From the UHGV virus genome UHGV-0135550: DNA of 18,754 nucleotides; one strand, written 5' to 3'. The position numbers and the translations under genes are program-made. The notes beneath the pieces were generated by a model. It worked only from the letters and a program-made list of their open reading frames with translations. It was not told where the DNA came from and ran no database searches. The stretch is from a virus. Of this stretch, positions 2,868-12,577 are shown piece after piece. Every line of letters begins with the position of its first letter. Position 1 is the stretch's first letter.

Positions 2868-2942
<75 letters not shown>

Positions 2943-2945
2943 ATA

Positions 2946-3021
<76 letters not shown>

Positions 3022-3023
3022 AA

Positions 3024-3100
3024 TGGACCGTCACCGGAGACTCGAACCCCGCGCCATCAACTTCGAAGGCTGATGCTCTATCCGGATGAGCTAGTGACGG
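3024..3100 (-). tRNA. tRNA-Arg (anticodon UCG)
   Basis: Minus strand CCGTCACTAGCTCATCCGGATAGAGCATCAGCCTTCGAAGTTGATGGCGCGGGGTTCGAGTCTCCGGTGACGGTCCA: 7-bp acceptor stem (C1-G72), D-loop with GG, anticodon loop CTTCGAA, T-loop TTCGAGT, encoded CCA. Confidence 0.7.
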
Positions 3101-3224
3101 TTTTATTGCCACATCCGTAACGACAGCCAGCGGGAATAATATGCATTCAGAATCAGCCGCCTTAGCTAATTGTGCAACCATCTGCTCTTTGCAAGTGCAC
3201 TTAACGTCCTGCGCCACTTTTCAG

Positions 3225-3253
3225 GCATAAAAAACCCGCTCATCGGCGGGTTT
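3225..3253 (-). terminator. Rho-independent terminator (minus strand) at the left boundary of the AT-rich island
   Basis: Stem AAACCCGC / GCGGGTTT (3232-3239 / 3246-3253), loop TCATCG; on the minus strand the stem is followed by TTTTATGCC extending the U-tract. Confidence 0.5.
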
Positions 3254-3298
3254 AAGCTGTGTGGCGTAGTAACCACTCTTAACACGATACAATACTTT

Positions 3299-3327
3299 TT
3301 GCGTACGCGTTAAGATTTTTTTATAAT
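3299..3327 (+). promoter_or_regulatory. Sigma70-like promoter for the large island ORF
   Basis: -35 TTGCGT (3299-3304), 17-bp spacer, perfect -10 TATAAT (3322-3327), about 70 nt upstream of the ATG at 3397. Confidence 0.4.
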
Positions 3328-3396
3328 TACTTACCTTTCTCACACCAAATGTAAAAGCAATATTTTTTGATAATCCTGTTGTTTAAAGGGAATAGC

Positions 3397-6300
3397 ATGA
3401 AATCAATTGTACACTTATCCGACTTACACTTATCAGACTCAAAAAAATATGGTTTTCACTGGAAGAAAGCCAAAGAACTGGTCACAGTATTAGTTAATGA
3501 TATACATTCATTAAGTAAAGAAAACAACCTCCAGATAGATGCCATTTTTTTTACTGGGGATTTAACGTTTTCTGGAACCAAAGAGCAATTTCAACTATTT
3601 GATGAACATTTCCTCTCTCCACTTATTCAAAAGCTGAACATCAGTAAAAAAAACATTTTTATAACCCCAGGCAATCATGATGTGGACAGAAGTAAAGTTC
3701 ATCCACTTGAAAAACAACTGCGAACTGGTTCGGACGAAAATTTCATATCATCATACTTTGATATGATAAATAATGGAAAGTATTCATGGGAACGTCTCTA
3801 CGAGTACTGTGAATATAATAAAACAATATTAGATCATCATTCTGATGTTGAACAATCTGGACGCATGATTACATGCTTTAAAGTAACAAACAAATTATAC
3901 GTCGTTAGCGTAAATAGCGCATGGTTAGCTATGGATGATAATGATATTGGTAACTTACGAATTACCCAAAAGCAAATTGATTTTATCAATCGTGCCAAAA
4001 TACCTTCTGATGCAAAAATAATATTATTATGCCATCATCCTTTAGATTGGTTGAATAAGAATGATCGTGACATTTTTTCAACATTTATTGAAAAAAAAGT
4101 TTCAATGTTCTTTTTTGGTCATATGCATGATTTTAAACAAAAACTAGAATCTAGTTTTTGTGAAAACATCACCCTCTTTTTGCAAGCAGGAACTTTGGAT
4201 ACTAGTGAAAATGTATCAGGCTATTCATTAATAAATTTTAATAGTTCAAATGTCATATCAGACGGAAGAATTTTTTATAGAAAATATAATAAAGAAAAAA
4301 CATGCTATGAACCATGGGAAGAAAGAGGAAATGGTGGTGTTTTTGATTTCACCACTGAGAAAACTCTAACTTTTGACTCTGAAAAATTTGCAACATTATC
4401 TAATGAGATTCTAGAGAAAACTGATAAGGATTTATTAATTAACATTGGAATCTCTGATGAAAAGAAAAAAAGTCTAAGAACTCTATTTACTGAACCAAAT
4501 TTCCTTGAATTTGCTCTTGGAGCCATGCCTTCTATGGAGATTAAGTCCACACAAGAATTACTAGAAGGACGAAACAACCTTGTGATTGTAGGAAACCATA
4601 GCTCAGGTAAAACATCTCTTTTAAAATACCTATTCATTAAGAGTCTAGAAAAACAAGCCAGCAAAGACTTCAGTAACTTTGCATTTTTCTTAGATTTAAA
4701 TGCAATTGAATTAAATAGCTTAAATACAATTGTAAGCGCATTATGTACACAATATTTCAATGCAGATTCGACCACATCTTTTGAAGAAAAAATTAAAAAA
4801 ATGTTACATGAGGGAAGATGTGTTATATATATTGATAATCTGGACAATATAAATACAAAAGAACAATGTGTAATTTCTGATTTTTTTATAAAATTCAAAG
4901 AATGTAGATTTATCGTAACTGCTGGCTATAATAATTCAGATCTGGTAGTTAAAATATTATCAGATGAAAGTAAAGCTAAATTTCATGCAATTGCTATAGG
5001 TTCATTACGCAGATCTAATGTTCGCGATATTGTATCAAGATGGCACGACACAACATCACAAAATATAATATATAAAGAAATCACGCGAACAATCAACAAT
5101 TCGCAACTTCCTCATAATTATTTTACATACTCAATGCTTTTAGCTATTTATGAAGTTGATCATGACGTTAAAGGAATATTAAGTGAGTCTGATATTATAG
5201 AAAACTTCATAGAAATTTTGCTTCGTAAACATTTTATGGATACTCCGCCTAATAAGCCACAATTTAAAGAACTTCGACATTTTCTTGGATATTTAGGATT
5301 TACATTATTCAAAAACAAATGTAATTTTATTTCAAATAATGAACTTCTGCAGACTGCAATAATTTTCAATAGAGATACCATGCATGATTATCAAGTAGAA
5401 GACTATATAAAACCATTAAAAGAATGTGGAATATTGAAAGAAGAGCTATGTAATGTGATTTTCTCGCAGCCTTGCTTTTTATACTATTCCATCGCTTATT
5501 TCATGAAGCATAACGAAGAGCTAAAGAAAGAAATTTTATCCGATAATAATTACCTACATCTACATAAAGTTATTGAATACTATTCATCGCAGAACTCATC
5601 TAGTCTTGATTTATTATACTTACTTAAAAAGAAGACTAATGCAATCAAATCTTCTTTATCTGAACGAATGCTCGAAGATAAGGGAATAAATATTGAAGAT
5701 ATAAAGATTGAAGACTCTAATACTTTCTCTATTTTAGATATGGTATCAACCCAAGATGATTTCGAAAAAAAGATAGAATCACTCCGTGCAGATAGAGAAA
5801 AAGATGACGCGCGACTAGATGAATTATCACCTTTATCTGATAAAGATAAAAAAGCTAATATATCAAATGTTAGAGCTGAAGGTAATAATAATCTGTTACA
5901 TGATCTTATTAACACTTTATCTCTTTATGCAAGGGTATTCCGTAGTACTGAATTATCTATGGAAAGAGAAAATATATTAAATATATTTAATGACCTTGTA
6001 AAGGGTTATGTTTTTTACATGAAAGCGTCACTAGTACTAATGGATGATTCATTTGTTCTTCCAGTAATACTCCCTGCATTAGAAAAGAAAATGCAAGAGG
6101 ATAAATTAACCGATAACGAAAGGCAACGAGTTTTTGAAATGTTTAAACTAGTATTGTCTTTAGTTCGCTCAATGATCCCAAATAACATACAGTTTATTAT
6201 GAGCAATGACTTAAGCTCGAAAAAACCACGTATTGCAAACATTATTACTGAATCAAAAGACTCAAATAGCAATCCTGTAGAAAAGGCTATTTTAACTTTC

Positions 6301-6549
6301 ACCTTAATGGATATTAAAGATGAAATGGTTATACAATTAGCTAACGATTTAGCAAAGATACAAAACAAAGTTGTTCAAGAATCTCTTTTCTTCAAGATTA
6401 ATCAAATTATAACAAGTAACTATGATTTAAAAAGAACTGAAGAAGAAGCATTGAAAGAGTTAGCAAAAAACATTGGCATTAAAAGAAAATTAATTCTCAC
6501 ACCCAAGATTAGTGATGCCTTTAATACGTTAAACCGCATAGGACATTAA
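3397..6549 (+). CDS. Large multidomain protein: N-terminal calcineurin-like metallophosphoesterase, central NACHT/STAND-like P-loop NTPase, C-terminal helical domain; candidate antiphage defense protein
   Basis: Metallophosphoesterase motifs DxH (D9-L-H11), GD (54-55), GNHD (92-95), HH (213-214), GHMH (241-244); Walker A GNHSSGKT (399-406); Walker B-like VIYIDNLD (about 476-483) followed by FIVTAG; ATG at 3397 with AAAGGGA RBS (TTG at 3367 is the ORF-track start). Confidence 0.8.
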   Translation: MKSIVHLSDLHLSDSKKYGFHWKKAKELVTVLVNDIHSLSKENNLQIDAIFFTGDLTFSGTKEQFQLFDEHFLSPLIQKLNISKKNIFITPGNHDVDRSKVHPLEKQLRTGSDENFISSYFDMINNGKYSWERLYEYCEYNKTILDHHSDVEQSGRMITCFKVTNKLYVVSVNSAWLAMDDNDIGNLRITQKQIDFINRAKIPSDAKIILLCHHPLDWLNKNDRDIFSTFIEKKVSMFFFGHMHDFKQKLESSFCENITLFLQAGTLDTSENVSGYSLINFNSSNVISDGRIFYRKYNKEKTCYEPWEERGNGGVFDFTTEKTLTFDSEKFATLSNEILEKTDKDLLINIGISDEKKKSLRTLFTEPNFLEFALGAMPSMEIKSTQELLEGRNNLVIVGNHSSGKTSLLKYLFIKSLEKQASKDFSNFAFFLDLNAIELNSLNTIVSALCTQYFNADSTTSFEEKIKKMLHEGRCVIYIDNLDNINTKEQCVISDFFIKFKECRFIVTAGYNNSDLVVKILSDESKAKFHAIAIGSLRRSNVRDIVSRWHDTTSQNIIYKEITRTINNSQLPHNYFTYSMLLAIYEVDHDVKGILSESDIIENFIEILLRKHFMDTPPNKPQFKELRHFLGYLGFTLFKNKCNFISNNELLQTAIIFNRDTMHDYQVEDYIKPLKECGILKEELCNVIFSQPCFLYYSIAYFMKHNEELKKEILSDNNYLHLHKVIEYYSSQNSSSLDLLYLLKKKTNAIKSSLSERMLEDKGINIEDIKIEDSNTFSILDMVSTQDDFEKKIESLRADREKDDARLDELSPLSDKDKKANISNVRAEGNNNLLHDLINTLSLYARVFRSTELSMERENILNIFNDLVKGYVFYMKASLVLMDDSFVLPVILPALEKKMQEDKLTDNERQRVFEMFKLVLSLVRSMIPNNIQFIMSNDLSSKKPRIANIITESKDSNSNPVEKAILTFTLMDIKDEMVIQLANDLAKIQNKVVQESLFFKINQIITSNYDLKRTEEEALKELAKNIGIKRKLILTPKISDAFNTLNRIGH

Positions 6550-6575
6550 AATGCCACTTTTTTGATATAATTAAA

Positions 6576-6603
6576 AACCACCCGTAACAGGGTGGTTCTC
6601 TAC
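6576..6603. terminator. Hairpin terminator between the convergent large ORF and small ORF (strong on minus strand, possible on plus)
   Basis: Perfect 8-bp stem AACCACCC / GGGTGGTT (6576-6583 / 6590-6597), loop GTAACA; minus-strand reading is followed by TTTTTAATTAT; sits 27 nt after the large ORF stop. Confidence 0.6.
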
Positions 6604-6652
6604 CTCTGCTGCAATATATCTCAAATAATTAAAACGAGCAGGAATTTACCTA

Positions 6653-6832
6653 TCAAAAAACTTGACTACCGGAATTCGAATTTAAAACCCCATTAGTATT
6701 TTTAGGTTTTGTCATTTTCAAATTAGCTTTCATACTACATGCCATAAAATATTGGGTAAGAAAAATGGTATTTAAATGATTCCAAGAAGTAGTTTTATCA
6801 TAAAAATAATTAATTCTTTGTTTCTTATTCAT
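6653..6832 (-). CDS. Small AT-rich ORF (59 aa) of unknown function, convergent with the large island gene
   Basis: ATG at 6830-6832 preceded by a strong RBS (AAGGAG, 6-nt spacing); no motif I recognise; followed by the 6576-6597 terminator. Confidence 0.35.
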   Translation of the reverse strand: MNKKQRINYFYDKTTSWNHLNTIFLTQYFMACSMKANLKMTKPKNTNGVLNSNSGSQVF

Positions 6833-6907
6833 GCACACTCCTTAGTAAAATATAGAAATAAAAGACAAATCACTTATAAATGTCATGTTAAAAAAATTCT
6901 CATCATG

Positions 6908-6936
6908 ATTATTGATGAGTGATTTTATATTATCAA
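6908..6936 (-). promoter_or_regulatory. Candidate sigma70 promoter downstream of Q (possible late promoter PR'-like, or promoter of the small ORF)
   Basis: On the minus strand: -35 TTGATA (6931-6936), 17-bp spacer, -10 AATAAT (6908-6913); AT-rich context so chance matches are likely. Confidence 0.3.
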
Positions 6937-7063
6937 AAAATTATATTATTAACAACTCTTGTTTATTACTCAACCAATACCAAAATCATTAGCCACGCAT
7001 ATATATTTTCAAACATATAAAAACAACACACAATATAAAATCCAGCCACAAAAACTCGCACTT

Positions 7064-7408
7064 CTATTTTATGAAATAAAAACACCCTTCAATAAAACCT
7101 AAAGCAGTTTGCAATTCCTTTCTAATCGTACCGTCCGAACATTTTCGCCTCTTCGCAATAGTTCTAAGCGAAATACCAATAACAAAATGAGCTATAATTA
7201 GCTCATATTCCTCTGGTTTATACTTACACAGGCGGGCAACACAGCCGTCTATCATGATGCCTTCATCATCATCACACTGAAGGCGTATTTTTTTACCATG
7301 AGGTAAAAGCCCCTTAAAGCCTGCTGCTATCGGCTGCCAGTCCACACCACTGTTATCTGCTGCAGCCCATGCTCCCCAGCGGTCCAAAACTTCATACATA
7401 TCACGCAT
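7064..7408 (-). CDS. Late-gene antitermination protein Q (small Q family, non-lambda type)
   Basis: N-terminal LDRWGAWAA motif and Cys-rich core (QCDDDEGIMIDGC ... KCSDG) as I recall for phage antiterminator Q family; ATG at 7406-7408 with GGAGAAA RBS (TTG at 7423 is the ORF-track start). Confidence 0.75.
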   Translation of the reverse strand: MRDMYEVLDRWGAWAAADNSGVDWQPIAAGFKGLLPHGKKIRLQCDDDEGIMIDGCVARLCKYKPEEYELIIAHFVIGISLRTIAKRRKCSDGTIRKELQTALGFIEGCFYFIK

Positions 7409-11748: not shown

Positions 11749-12577
11749 GACGATGCCCTCCGCTGATATTCAGGAGACGGTGAATATGAAAATTAGCCTT
11801 ATCCGCCAAACGGATACGTTCAGCCTGCAAGTTAAGAAGGGTTTCTACCAGAACCTGATGCGCCTGCGGATCCGAAAGAGTTACCTTGCGCAGAGCACGT
11901 AGTGCAGTTGTTACATAACTGAGTTTATGTAAGTCTTCATCATTCAGACGAGTGAGGGCTGGGACAGTAGCCATGATGGCAGCCTCCGTATGCAATGGAT
12001 AACTTCCACCACCGGAAACGCCAATTTCGCTGGTGGTGAACTGAGCAGGGTTGGCGTAACCGGCGCATACGGAAACCGGCGCACCTTTCGGTGCCCCCAC
12101 CCAGCCCACCATAATTTGGGTATAGCTGAGTTGTAGCAACAAAAAAGACGCTAACGCGCCAATTGTCGCCGTATGCAATTCCAGGACGCCAATCCCGGCA
12201 CCCGCTTTATAAGGTGCCTGAACAGTGTAACGTCCCGGAATGGCAGAATCAATGTGCTGGTGGTCCTTCACACTCAACAAAATCACGCCTGAATTTCCAC
12301 AAAGGACTAAAGCACTCATGCGGGTAGTCTTTGCGAAGATAGATAACGCGCTGTGTTTCTGGCTCCCAACGAATAACATGGACATAAAGCCCTCTTCCGT
12401 CACGAAACCAGCGGTTAAGTTCCTGCACAACTCGCCCCCCACAGTCAGGTAAAGTTCTCTGTGGTTACTTACAGCCAGGTGATTTGGTAATCTGCATTCA
12501 TGCCGTAACAACAGGTGTGCAGCGACACTGACCACCAGCTGTTGCGACAAACGGTTATTTGCCGTTAAACTGTTCAT
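11741..12577 (-). CDS. Hypothetical protein (278 aa) in the early-right operon
   Basis: ATG at 12575-12577 with GGAGAAA RBS; ATGA overlap with the upstream gene stop and 8-nt overlap with the downstream gene; no recognisable motif. Confidence 0.45.
   Translation of the reverse strand: MNSLTANNRLSQQLVVSVAAHLLLRHECRLPNHLAVSNHRELYLTVGGELCRNLTAGFVTEEGFMSMLFVGSQKHSALSIFAKTTRMSALVLCGNSGVILLSVKDHQHIDSAIPGRYTVQAPYKAGAGIGVLELHTATIGALASFLLLQLSYTQIMVGWVGAPKGAPVSVCAGYANPAQFTTSEIGVSGGGSYPLHTEAAIMATVPALTRLNDEDLHKLSYVTTALRALRKVTLSDPQAHQVLVETLLNLQAERIRLADKANFHIHRLLNISGGHRHA

Follow-up and report, generated by a model that had tools for sequence, protein, structure and literature searches.

The small minus-strand unit at 6936-6576 probably makes up the half nearer Q of a low-GC, two-gene cargo module that lies between the stop codon of the antiterminator gene Q and the -35 element of the late promoter PR'. 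We read it as a real small-protein gene with its own terminator, encoding a partner of the large gene of the island. Our comparisons also indicate that the true late promoter is probably a separate conserved element at 3313-3229 on the minus strand, which forms the distal boundary of the island. All coordinates refer to the window, that is, the whole stretch of 18,754 nt that was analysed.

The island begins behind Q (7064-7408, minus strand), which encodes a 114-aa protein of the Q21/933W family (PF06530, Pfam E 1.3e-44) that distantly matches the solved Q21 structure. GC content falls to 27-35% across about 7200-3200, compared with 47-58% in the flanks, and the low-GC island exactly fills the gap from the Q stop codon to the PR' -35 element. 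Its large gene (3397-6549, plus strand) starts 84 nt from that -35 element, runs convergently to the small ORF and encodes a 1050-aa metallophosphoesterase-STAND (NACHT-like) NTPase, as assigned with Pfam and PADLOC. Pfam recognizes a Metallophos domain (E 1.3e-11) and a NACHT domain (E 1.6e-6, 28.5 bits against a cut-off of 26.7), and the Walker A motif reads GNHSSGKTS. The protein matches the PADLOC model PDC-S60 almost from end to end (E 2e-97), with residues 4-1029 aligned to positions 3-1001 of the 1027 in the profile, and its metallophosphoesterase domain additionally matches a PADLOC effector endonuclease model (E 4.6e-23). The PDC-S60 match makes the large gene a candidate anti-phage gene. 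A literature search returned no mention of PDC-S60 and no named metallophosphoesterase-STAND system. Homologues of the large gene with 50-64% identity occupy the same Q-to-lysis slot in other genera. In sister phages the Q slot holds other cargo, and the island with the small unit is absent there.

The small ORF (6832-6653, minus strand) encodes 59 aa plus a stop, with its ATG at 6832 and the stop codon ending at 6653 (MNKKQRINYFYDKTTSWNHLNTIFLTQYFMACSMKANLKMTKPKNTNGVLNSNSGSQVF). It starts 231 nt past the Q stop codon on the same strand as Q, and a Shine-Dalgarno sequence, AAGGAG (6843-6838), precedes the ATG with a 5-nt spacer. PGAP annotates it as hypothetical protein WP_039268256.1. The initial annotation had proposed exactly this ORF and ribosome-binding site, and both are borne out; when the 514-nt spacer was shuffled 2000 times with dinucleotides preserved, only 11 shuffles (0.55%) had an ORF with an ATG start, a length of 49 aa or more and a Shine-Dalgarno sequence on the same strand. 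The hairpin that it placed behind the ORF was confirmed as well. This intrinsic-terminator hairpin, AACCACCC-TGTTAC-GGGTGGTT with a U-tract (6597-6576, minus strand), is followed by T-rich sequence and lies 27 nt past the stop codon of the convergent large gene. Its stem reaches 6600-6573 through pairing with the U-tract, and its folding energy of -17 kcal/mol compares with an average of -9.05 for shuffles (z -3.2).

The promoter-like site proposed for the unit is there in sequence. The elements TTGATA (6936-6931) and AATAAT (6913-6908), separated by 17 nt on the minus strand, are present and match at 10 of 12 positions; the site begins 128 nt past the Q stop codon, on the same strand, and about 330 nt separate it from the terminator. 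The number of such matches, however, is at chance level, with 4 in the spacer against 3.6 +/- 1.9 in shuffles and 27 in the whole window against 32.1 expected; the promoter is putative. Two further matches at 9 of 12 positions lie just upstream (7012-6985 and 6973-6945). A 28-nt (ATCACTC)x4 expansion lies between the proposed -35 and -10 hexamers in one E. coli genome (L031), the site is not conserved in the alignment to the Rahnella island, and a promoter scan across the islands found none conserved at the threshold used. Overlapping the proposed -10 hexamer is a perfect 7-bp inverted repeat, CTCATCA-N7-TGATGAG (6899-6919), with T7 after it on the minus strand. It is terminator-like on both strands, against 0.1 such cases expected (-7.6 kcal/mol, z -2.5), and may act either to terminate transcription weakly after Q or as an operator-like site.

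The small ORF is probably a real gene that evolves rapidly and encodes a small basic protein. The predicted product has a pI of 10.0 and a net charge of +7, and is modeled as a single long helix over residues 3-40 plus a disordered tail (AF2 mean pLDDT 64); across the small proteins the structure models reach only moderate confidence (pLDDT 64-68). All ten small proteins, that of the window included, have a pI of 9.4-10.3; AT-rich DNA by default encodes basic peptides rich in lysine and asparagine. Scans of the 59-aa protein against Pfam, PHROGs and PADLOC gave no matches, and a word-indexed search of 5.8 billion proteins recovered only its own cluster. Exhaustive phmmer against 1.84 billion representatives added one multi-stretch match to a 462-aa protein (E 3.3e-05), which is probably compositional. 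In these protein searches, relatives were found only inside the islands described here. An Rfam search of 3100-7200, at the gathering cut-off and at E<=1, returned nothing beyond a chance snoRNA-like match.

Comparisons between islands revealed selection on the protein. The Rahnella island carries a homologue of the window ORF (E 4e-9, 45% identity over 38 aa). Between these two, pN/pS is 0.44/0.82 in the annotated frame, compared with 1.0 and 1.5 in the two alternative frames; between the Enterobacter ORF and that of a viral contig (L046) it is 0.28/0.74 in frame and 1.0-1.5 in the remaining two. The window and Rahnella ORFs have the motif YF[MV]ACSMK in common, which contains synonymous changes at third positions. 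At the level of substitution patterns, these two independent pairs demonstrate purifying selection on the small protein in the annotated frame only. The ORF has few polymorphisms within E. coli, and these lean towards non-synonymous changes (Y9C, H19Y and N45M/K, against two synonymous); its SNP density equals that of the flanks.

The region was found in 16 of 5426 complete E. coli genomes, always in the order Q, ORF, large gene, and the 3' half of the Q gene and the 6936-6576 region are near-identical in the same 16 genomes. The exact 59-aa protein is indexed in 910 assembly-collection blocks; every place listed has the same arrangement, with varying downstream contexts. The unit, like the whole of 6400-7100 around it, was seen only together with the island.

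We then compared nine other islands, from Rahnella, Citrobacter, Enterobacter, Pantoea and metagenomes, whose large proteins are 50-64% identical to that of the window. The initial annotation had named absence of the ORF from homologous islands as evidence against it. Instead, a convergent ORF of 49-58 aa led by a Shine-Dalgarno sequence fills the slot in all nine, one of them (Rahnella) a clear homologue, and each has a strong Shine-Dalgarno sequence (GGAG, GGAGG, GGGAGG or GGGGGG) at comparable spacing. The ORFs of Rahnella (L033, 55 aa, AAGGAG), Citrobacter (L035, 58 aa) and Enterobacter (L036, 57 aa) were omitted from the source gene calls, those of L051 (57 aa) and L052 (52 aa) were called, and the viral contig L046 carries one of 58 aa. 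Two of the nine islands have no Q, namely those of Pantoea (L034, 49 aa) and L050 (51 aa). Homology is detectable between Enterobacter and L046 (E 4e-17), L051 and Citrobacter (E 6e-7), and Pantoea and L050 (E 6e-6). The small ORFs fall into three sequence groups with no mutual homology detected (hhalign E 0.41; hmmsearch at noise level). We therefore claim only a conserved slot, and not a single conserved small-protein family.

Other features of the slot recur to different degrees. In eight of the nine related islands the gap likewise holds a GC-rich hairpin, and the hairpin is conserved more consistently than any other feature; the hairpin sequences are non-homologous, and two are bidirectional. 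In four group-B islands, -10-like hexamers (TATAGT, GATAGT, TAAAGT) lie 17-24 nt upstream of the ATG. Beside more distant large-gene homologues (at most 48% identity; Proteus, Cronobacter, Pectobacterium and metagenome-assembled genomes) no convergent ORF led by a Shine-Dalgarno sequence was present. A scan of genome contigs for large-gene relatives yielded three loci, none informative on the small ORF. Taken together, slot conservation, the Rahnella homologue and frame-specific substitutions support, as comparative evidence, the suggestion in the initial annotation that the ORF encodes a small partner of the large island gene.

How might the module work? The terminator would stop transcription arriving from Q or from a local promoter, and therefore no antisense transcript would run into the defence gene; the small protein would act on the large one. 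By analogy with known prophage systems, the mechanism that we favour, tentatively, is that the 59-aa protein is a self-immunity (anti-STAND) or restraining factor. On prophage induction, expression from the early-lytic strand would yield the small protein along with Q, and this protein would turn off the metallophosphoesterase-STAND sensor of the prophage itself, so that phage late proteins or the lytic programme would trigger no abortive infection. The strand layout fits this logic, with the ORF behind Q on the same strand and the large gene convergent. The two islands without Q weaken a strictly Q-timed form of the model.

Two characterized systems offer parallels. In Listeria TERi, experiments established that the defence gene is transcribed from its own promoter on the opposite strand, and that the early lytic operon contains small anti-defence genes, which are expressed on induction (bioRxiv 10.1101/2025.02.27.640495). 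The window has the same strand logic and no sequence relationship to that system. Moreover, the TERi defence protein is a small terminase inhibitor, whereas that of the window is a 1050-aa STAND NTPase, and self-immunity is a proposed role of the 59-aa protein. BstA is a prophage-borne abortive-infection protein, and the co-located aba spares the resident prophage (PMC8585504). The likeness lies in a prophage defence with a co-located sparing element; there is no homology to the window genes. The aba of the BstA study is reportedly a DNA element within the bstA locus and not a protein.

A positive cofactor role is nearly as likely as self-immunity. The defence protein would then need the small protein as a subunit, adaptor or chaperone, and the small protein would be expressed constitutively from its own promoter in the lysogen. 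This reading, which we consider rather unlikely in absolute terms, would account for the retention of the ORF beside the large gene in the two Q-less islands, and the promoter-like site in the window and the -10-like hexamers of the group-B islands are in its favour. Against it, PDC-S60 is catalogued as a single-gene candidate, going by PADLOC naming, and the ORF is missing beside the more distant large-gene homologues. Additionally, the small protein evolves much faster than its large neighbour, a pattern seen more typically in inhibitors or arms-race partners, and a convergent, non-operonic placement is unusual for an obligate subunit. Avs/NLR-like antiviral STAND proteins and PDC-S60 are described as single-protein systems. 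The large gene shares with them an N-terminal effector-type domain and a STAND NTPase core, but its subclade differs in the conserved small convergent ORF beside the candidate defence gene.

The unit could also be an independent moron. Lambdoid morons, described by Hendrix and colleagues, are promoter-gene-terminator cassettes of foreign composition between conserved phage genes. The small protein would then serve lysogenic conversion or exclusion and have no functional tie to the large gene. The cassette anatomy, with a terminator at its end, a GC content far below the flanks (27-30% against 50-57%), the position between Q and PR' and the absence from related phages all agree with such an origin. 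However, the island is a two-gene convergent module in which the small gene was never seen without the large one, whether in E. coli or among the nine related islands, and the slot persists across genera while its sequence turns over. The autonomous promoter is putative; 10/12 matches of this kind are not enriched. We regard an independent moron as improbable.

Somewhat more doubtful still is a spacer-and-insulator reading, in which only the terminator is functional, shielding the defence gene from Q read-through, and the ORF is a by-product of AT-rich sequence. The prominence of the hairpin among the conserved features, the lack of ORF relatives outside the islands and the non-synonymous leaning of the E. 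coli polymorphisms speak for it. Yet an ORF with a Shine-Dalgarno sequence is rare in shuffles across the islands (0.2-0.9% per spacer) and is nevertheless present in the window and in 9/9 related islands, in every case with a strong, correctly spaced Shine-Dalgarno sequence, and purifying selection is frame-specific in two independent pairs.

The initial annotation had also suggested that the unit is an analogue of PR' and its short terminated RNA. It would then be a late-promoter cassette like that of lambda (PR'-6S RNA-tR') or of Stx phages (PR'-StxS-tR'), Q would load there and read through the hairpin, and the ORF would be incidental. In phages of this kind PR' is constitutive and the short RNA is made in lysogens (PMC7547250). 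The small unit likewise lies downstream of Q on the same strand, its promoter-like site precedes a terminator by about 330 nt, and it is near-identical, together with the 3' half of Q, in the same 16 genomes. This suggestion was not supported: the homologue of the 933W pR'-qut-terminator segment, assigned from the 933W annotation and an alignment, sits at 3313-3229 (minus strand), 3.3 kb from the small unit and downstream of the island, and the small unit occurs only with the island.

That element comprises a -35 hexamer TTAACG (3313-3308), an 18-nt spacer, a -10 hexamer TATCGT (3289-3284), the motif AAGAGTGGTTAC (3280-3269) and a hairpin, AAACCCGC...GCGGGTTT (3253-3232), with a T-run after it, all on the minus strand. 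We found it in 366 phage records and 163 E. coli genomes. It adjoins the Q stop codon in cargo-free phages and comes after the cargo in the window; it is kept behind different cargos, and it follows the large gene in Rahnella and Citrobacter too. The Q protein shares 86-92% identity with its counterparts in related phages that carry cargo, and its helix-turn-helix region is conserved. Because Q is so similar and its DNA-binding region is conserved, the related phages should use the same Q site. By contrast, the small unit is not common to phages with the same Q, and 6936-6576 holds no qut motif resembling AAGAGTGGTTAC. The tRNA and lysis genes come after the 3313-3229 element, whereas the small unit is followed by the convergent 3.15-kb gene and not by late genes, so that read-through from it would yield 3.15 kb antisense across the large gene. 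With a promoter match at chance level and coding selection on the ORF besides, a late-promoter function for the small unit is very improbable. A published comparison of Stx pR' gives no promoter sequence for this Q type. The conserved element was also considered as a homologue of the processed 74-nt StxS RNA, with which it shares GUAUU; this was rejected, as the 933W alignment identifies it as the segment from pR' through qut to the first hairpin.

These results would correct the position of the late promoter for a widespread family of E. coli, Shigella and Stx prophages. In this family, Q and PR' can lie up to 3.8 kb apart (3.75 kb in the window), separated by antisense cargo that is inserted precisely where the Q stop codon meets the PR' -35 element. 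They also suggest, on comparative grounds, that the single-gene defence candidate PDC-S60 has an unrecognized partner, a fast-evolving small neighbour in a conserved slot that gene callers and homology searches mostly miss. If this small protein restrains or assists the STAND protein, it would become a candidate for a natural factor that regulates or inhibits a bacterial NLR-like protein, and it would offer a way into the question of how prophages keep from setting off their own pattern-recognition defences. If self-immunity is its role, PDC-S60 would be a pair of defence and self-immunity genes, and the 59-aa protein would be a natural small-protein inhibitor of a bacterial NLR-like receptor.

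The window is a lambdoid E. coli prophage similar to CPS-53 and e14, with its genes on the minus strand, and strain EC71 is the closest complete genome. Its gene order runs from the integrase through the early genes, DUF968 and Q to a low-GC island, tRNA-Arg/Thr/Gly and the lysis genes. Q (7408-7064, minus strand; PF06530, E 1.3e-44) belongs to the Q21/933W family (Yin et al., bioRxiv 10.1101/651190 and 10.1101/2022.03.25.485794), Q21 itself being merely a distant match. GC content in the island (about 7200-3200) is 27-35%, versus 47-58% in its flanks. The early region contains a C4 antisense RNA (80.7 bits) with an adjoining isrK Hfq-binding RNA (61.2 bits) at 12029-12217 on the minus strand (Rfam), a pair known from P1/P7-type immunity and antirepressor control.

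Comparison of related islands showed that the island holds a conserved convergent pair between Q and PR', in which a small ORF led by a Shine-Dalgarno motif and followed by a terminator faces a metallophosphoesterase-STAND gene. The 1050-aa product of this large gene (3397-6549, plus strand) combines a calcineurin-like metallophosphoesterase domain at its N terminus (E 1.3e-11) with a NACHT/STAND NTPase core. A match to the PADLOC candidate PDC-S60 spans the protein end to end (E 2e-97), and residues 5-333 also match a PADLOC effector endonuclease model; no mention of PDC-S60 was found in the literature searched. The equivalent position, flanked by a PF06530 Q and the lysis genes and read antisense, is filled by homologues of 50-64% identity in Rahnella aquatilis HX2, Citrobacter freundii, Enterobacter ludwigii, two viral contigs and two metagenomic contigs. 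Two islands without Q, that of Pantoea ananatis (integrase neighbour; tblastn) and L050, also carry a homologue, at 59% identity in each case, and more distant homologues (48% identity or less) are located elsewhere. In part of the population the defence gene seems to be degenerating. In strain KY177 (L002 6551-9702) it is split, giving a 955-aa product plus an 88-aa metallophosphoesterase fragment, with the small ORF intact, and protein cluster P0002, with 376 member sequences, is represented by a 784-aa N-terminally truncated form.

The small ORF (59 codons, 6832 to 6653, minus strand; a hypothetical protein in the PGAP annotation), the AAGGAG at 6843-6838, 5 nt before its ATG, and the hairpin AACCACCC-TGTTAC-GGGTGGTT at 6597-6576, followed by T-rich sequence, are all present as the initial annotation described them, and each goes beyond chance expectation. 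When the spacer was put through 2000 dinucleotide shuffles, just 11 produced an ATG ORF of 49 aa or more with a Shine-Dalgarno motif, and the hairpin has a folding energy of -17 kcal/mol (z -3.2). The promoter fared differently: TTGATA-17-AATAAT is present at 6936-6908 (minus strand), but such matches are no commoner than chance in the spacer (4 versus 3.6 +/- 1.9 expected) or across the whole window (27 versus 32.1 expected), leaving the promoter unproven. A perfect 7-bp inverted repeat (CTCATCA-N7-TGATGAG, 6919-6899), which overlaps the proposed -10 hexamer and is followed by T7, scores as terminator-like on both strands versus 0.1 expected; it could be a weak post-Q terminator or a protein-binding site. 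One E. coli genome, L031, has a 28-nt insertion of four extra ATCACTC heptamers at about 4880-4910, between the putative -35 and -10 hexamers; the corresponding site is window 6924, where the reference reads ATCACTCATCA. This could reflect slipped-strand variation or a dispensable promoter.

Sequence searches with the 59-aa protein recovered its own cluster alone; the exact protein is indexed in 910 assembly-collection blocks, and all the places listed have the order Q, ORF, large gene, with varying downstream contexts. We read the equivalent spacers of the nine related islands by hand, and the slot was filled in all nine by an ATG ORF of 49-58 aa, convergent to the large gene and preceded by a strong Shine-Dalgarno motif. 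A lack of conservation in homologous islands, the outcome that would have refuted the initial annotation, was thus not seen. Several of these ORFs are absent from the source annotation, and they end 10-40 nt from the large-gene stop versus 103 nt in the window. The small proteins fall into groups: A, window and Rahnella (E 4e-9, 45% over 38 aa; common motif LTxYF[MV]ACSMK); B, Enterobacter with the viral contig L046 (E 4e-17) and L051 with Citrobacter (E 6e-7); and C, Pantoea with L050 (E 6e-6). No homology was detectable among the three groups, and the sole common motif is an N-terminal [ND]-x-F at about residues 8-10 in nine of the ten proteins. All ten are basic and hydrophilic (pI 9.4-10.3), and AlphaFold2 models of moderate confidence show a long helix and then a disordered tail. 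Window and Rahnella ORFs gave an in-frame pN of 0.44 and pS of 0.82 (ratios 1.0 and 1.5 in the other frames), and Enterobacter and L046 gave 0.28 and 0.74 (about 1.0 in the others); these substitution patterns support coding in the annotated frame. E. coli polymorphisms in the ORF (Y9C, H19Y and N45M/K versus two synonymous) are too few for judgement.

A GC-rich hairpin with a T-rich tract on the small-ORF strand is found in the window and in eight of the nine related islands, where it sits in the gap separating the two convergent stop codons or overlaps them. Folding energies run from -13 to -21 kcal/mol (z -2.9 to -5.8), and the spacers are enriched for terminator-like sites (1-2 versus 0.2-0.3 expected). 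The hairpin sequences are unrelated among islands; in Citrobacter and L046 the hairpin is bidirectional. No promoter conserved across the islands was found. The ORF starts just 33-34 nt past the Q stop in Citrobacter and L051, so co-transcription with Q is plausible there; the window has a 231-nt gap with several chance-level promoter matches.

Conserved slot, in-group homology and frame-specific substitutions thus support the proposal that the ORF may encode a partner of the large protein. The terminator would block Q-side transcription from entering the defence gene antisense, and the small protein would act on the large protein. By analogy with known prophage systems, we tentatively regard it as a possible self-immunity or restraining factor. 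A positive cofactor is a somewhat less likely role, and it is improbable that the unit is an unrelated moron, and equally so that the ORF is non-functional. That the small unit is a PR' cassette or short-terminated-RNA analogue is very improbable and was wrongly suggested, because the 933W pR'-qut-terminator homologue sits at 3313-3229 on the minus strand.

Of 5426 complete E. coli genomes, only 16 contain the 6400-7100 region, which has no match among the phage records searched; related Q genes share at most 83.5% DNA identity, and homology ends at the Q stop codon. In sister prophages, other cargo genes lie antisense, with 3' ends that overlap the Q stop or come within about 20 nt of it, and therefore the late promoter cannot directly follow Q there. 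All sister prophages aligned have in common, on the far side of the cargo, an ~85-nt element (TAACGCGTACGCAAAAAGTATTGTATCGTGTTAAGAGTGGTTACTxCGCCACACAGCTTAAACCCGCCGnnGAGCGGGTTTTTT; window 3313-3229, minus strand), which is also present in 163 E. coli genomes and in 366 phage records. Most of these records are Stx-converting phages; SfII, mEp460 and cdtI are also among them. In UPEC-245U and Stx2a phage Stx2_EH2201 it begins at, or 15 nt past, the Q stop codon. The 933W homologue, which starts directly after the Q stop, is annotated with pR' (TTTACG-16-TATCAT), qut (GTTACATT) and a rho-independent terminator, and dRNA-seq of Sakai placed the PR' start "closely associated with Q" (PMC7547250). 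Rahnella and Citrobacter islands carry the same TTAACGCGTACGC...GAGTGGTCAC element ~90-100 nt beyond the large-gene start. Across the cargo-bearing phages the Q proteins show 86-92% identity and have a conserved helix-turn-helix region, and one common binding site is therefore expected. The annotated cassette has partial experimental support, and from homology to it we conclude that 3313-3229 is probably the true PR'-qut-terminator and that the island probably went in precisely where the Q stop meets the PR' -35 element. This element marks the distal edge of the island, 3.75 kb from Q. The same junction is a precise cargo hotspot, where the sister phages L003, L005-L008 and L012 carry other antisense genes.

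On the plus strand the large gene starts only 84 nt (3314-3396) from the minus-strand PR' -35 element, and therefore the defence-gene and late promoters must be back to back and divergent. In 933W a strong hairpin with T7 follows pR' at about +26 to +48 (L049 1227-1249) and is conserved in the window; by published Term-seq, the StxS 3' end lies 258 nt downstream, at the second terminator (compare L049 1430-1458) and not at the first hairpin. Immediately downstream of the PR' homologue are tRNA-Arg(tcg), tRNA-Thr(tgt) and tRNA-Gly(tcc) (2868-3100, minus strand). Stx phages carry an ileZ-argN-argO cluster downstream of PR', which this cluster parallels.

In the experimentally characterised Listeria TERi, the defence gene lies on the opposite strand under its own promoter and self-immunity genes lie in the early lytic operon (bioRxiv 10.1101/2025.02.27.640495); the strand logic of the window island is alike. 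BstA/aba is another case of prophage self-immunity (PMC8585504). Taken together, the arrangement is a variant of prophage-borne STAND defence cargo, in which the large gene is a candidate for the defence role, and it is directly testable.
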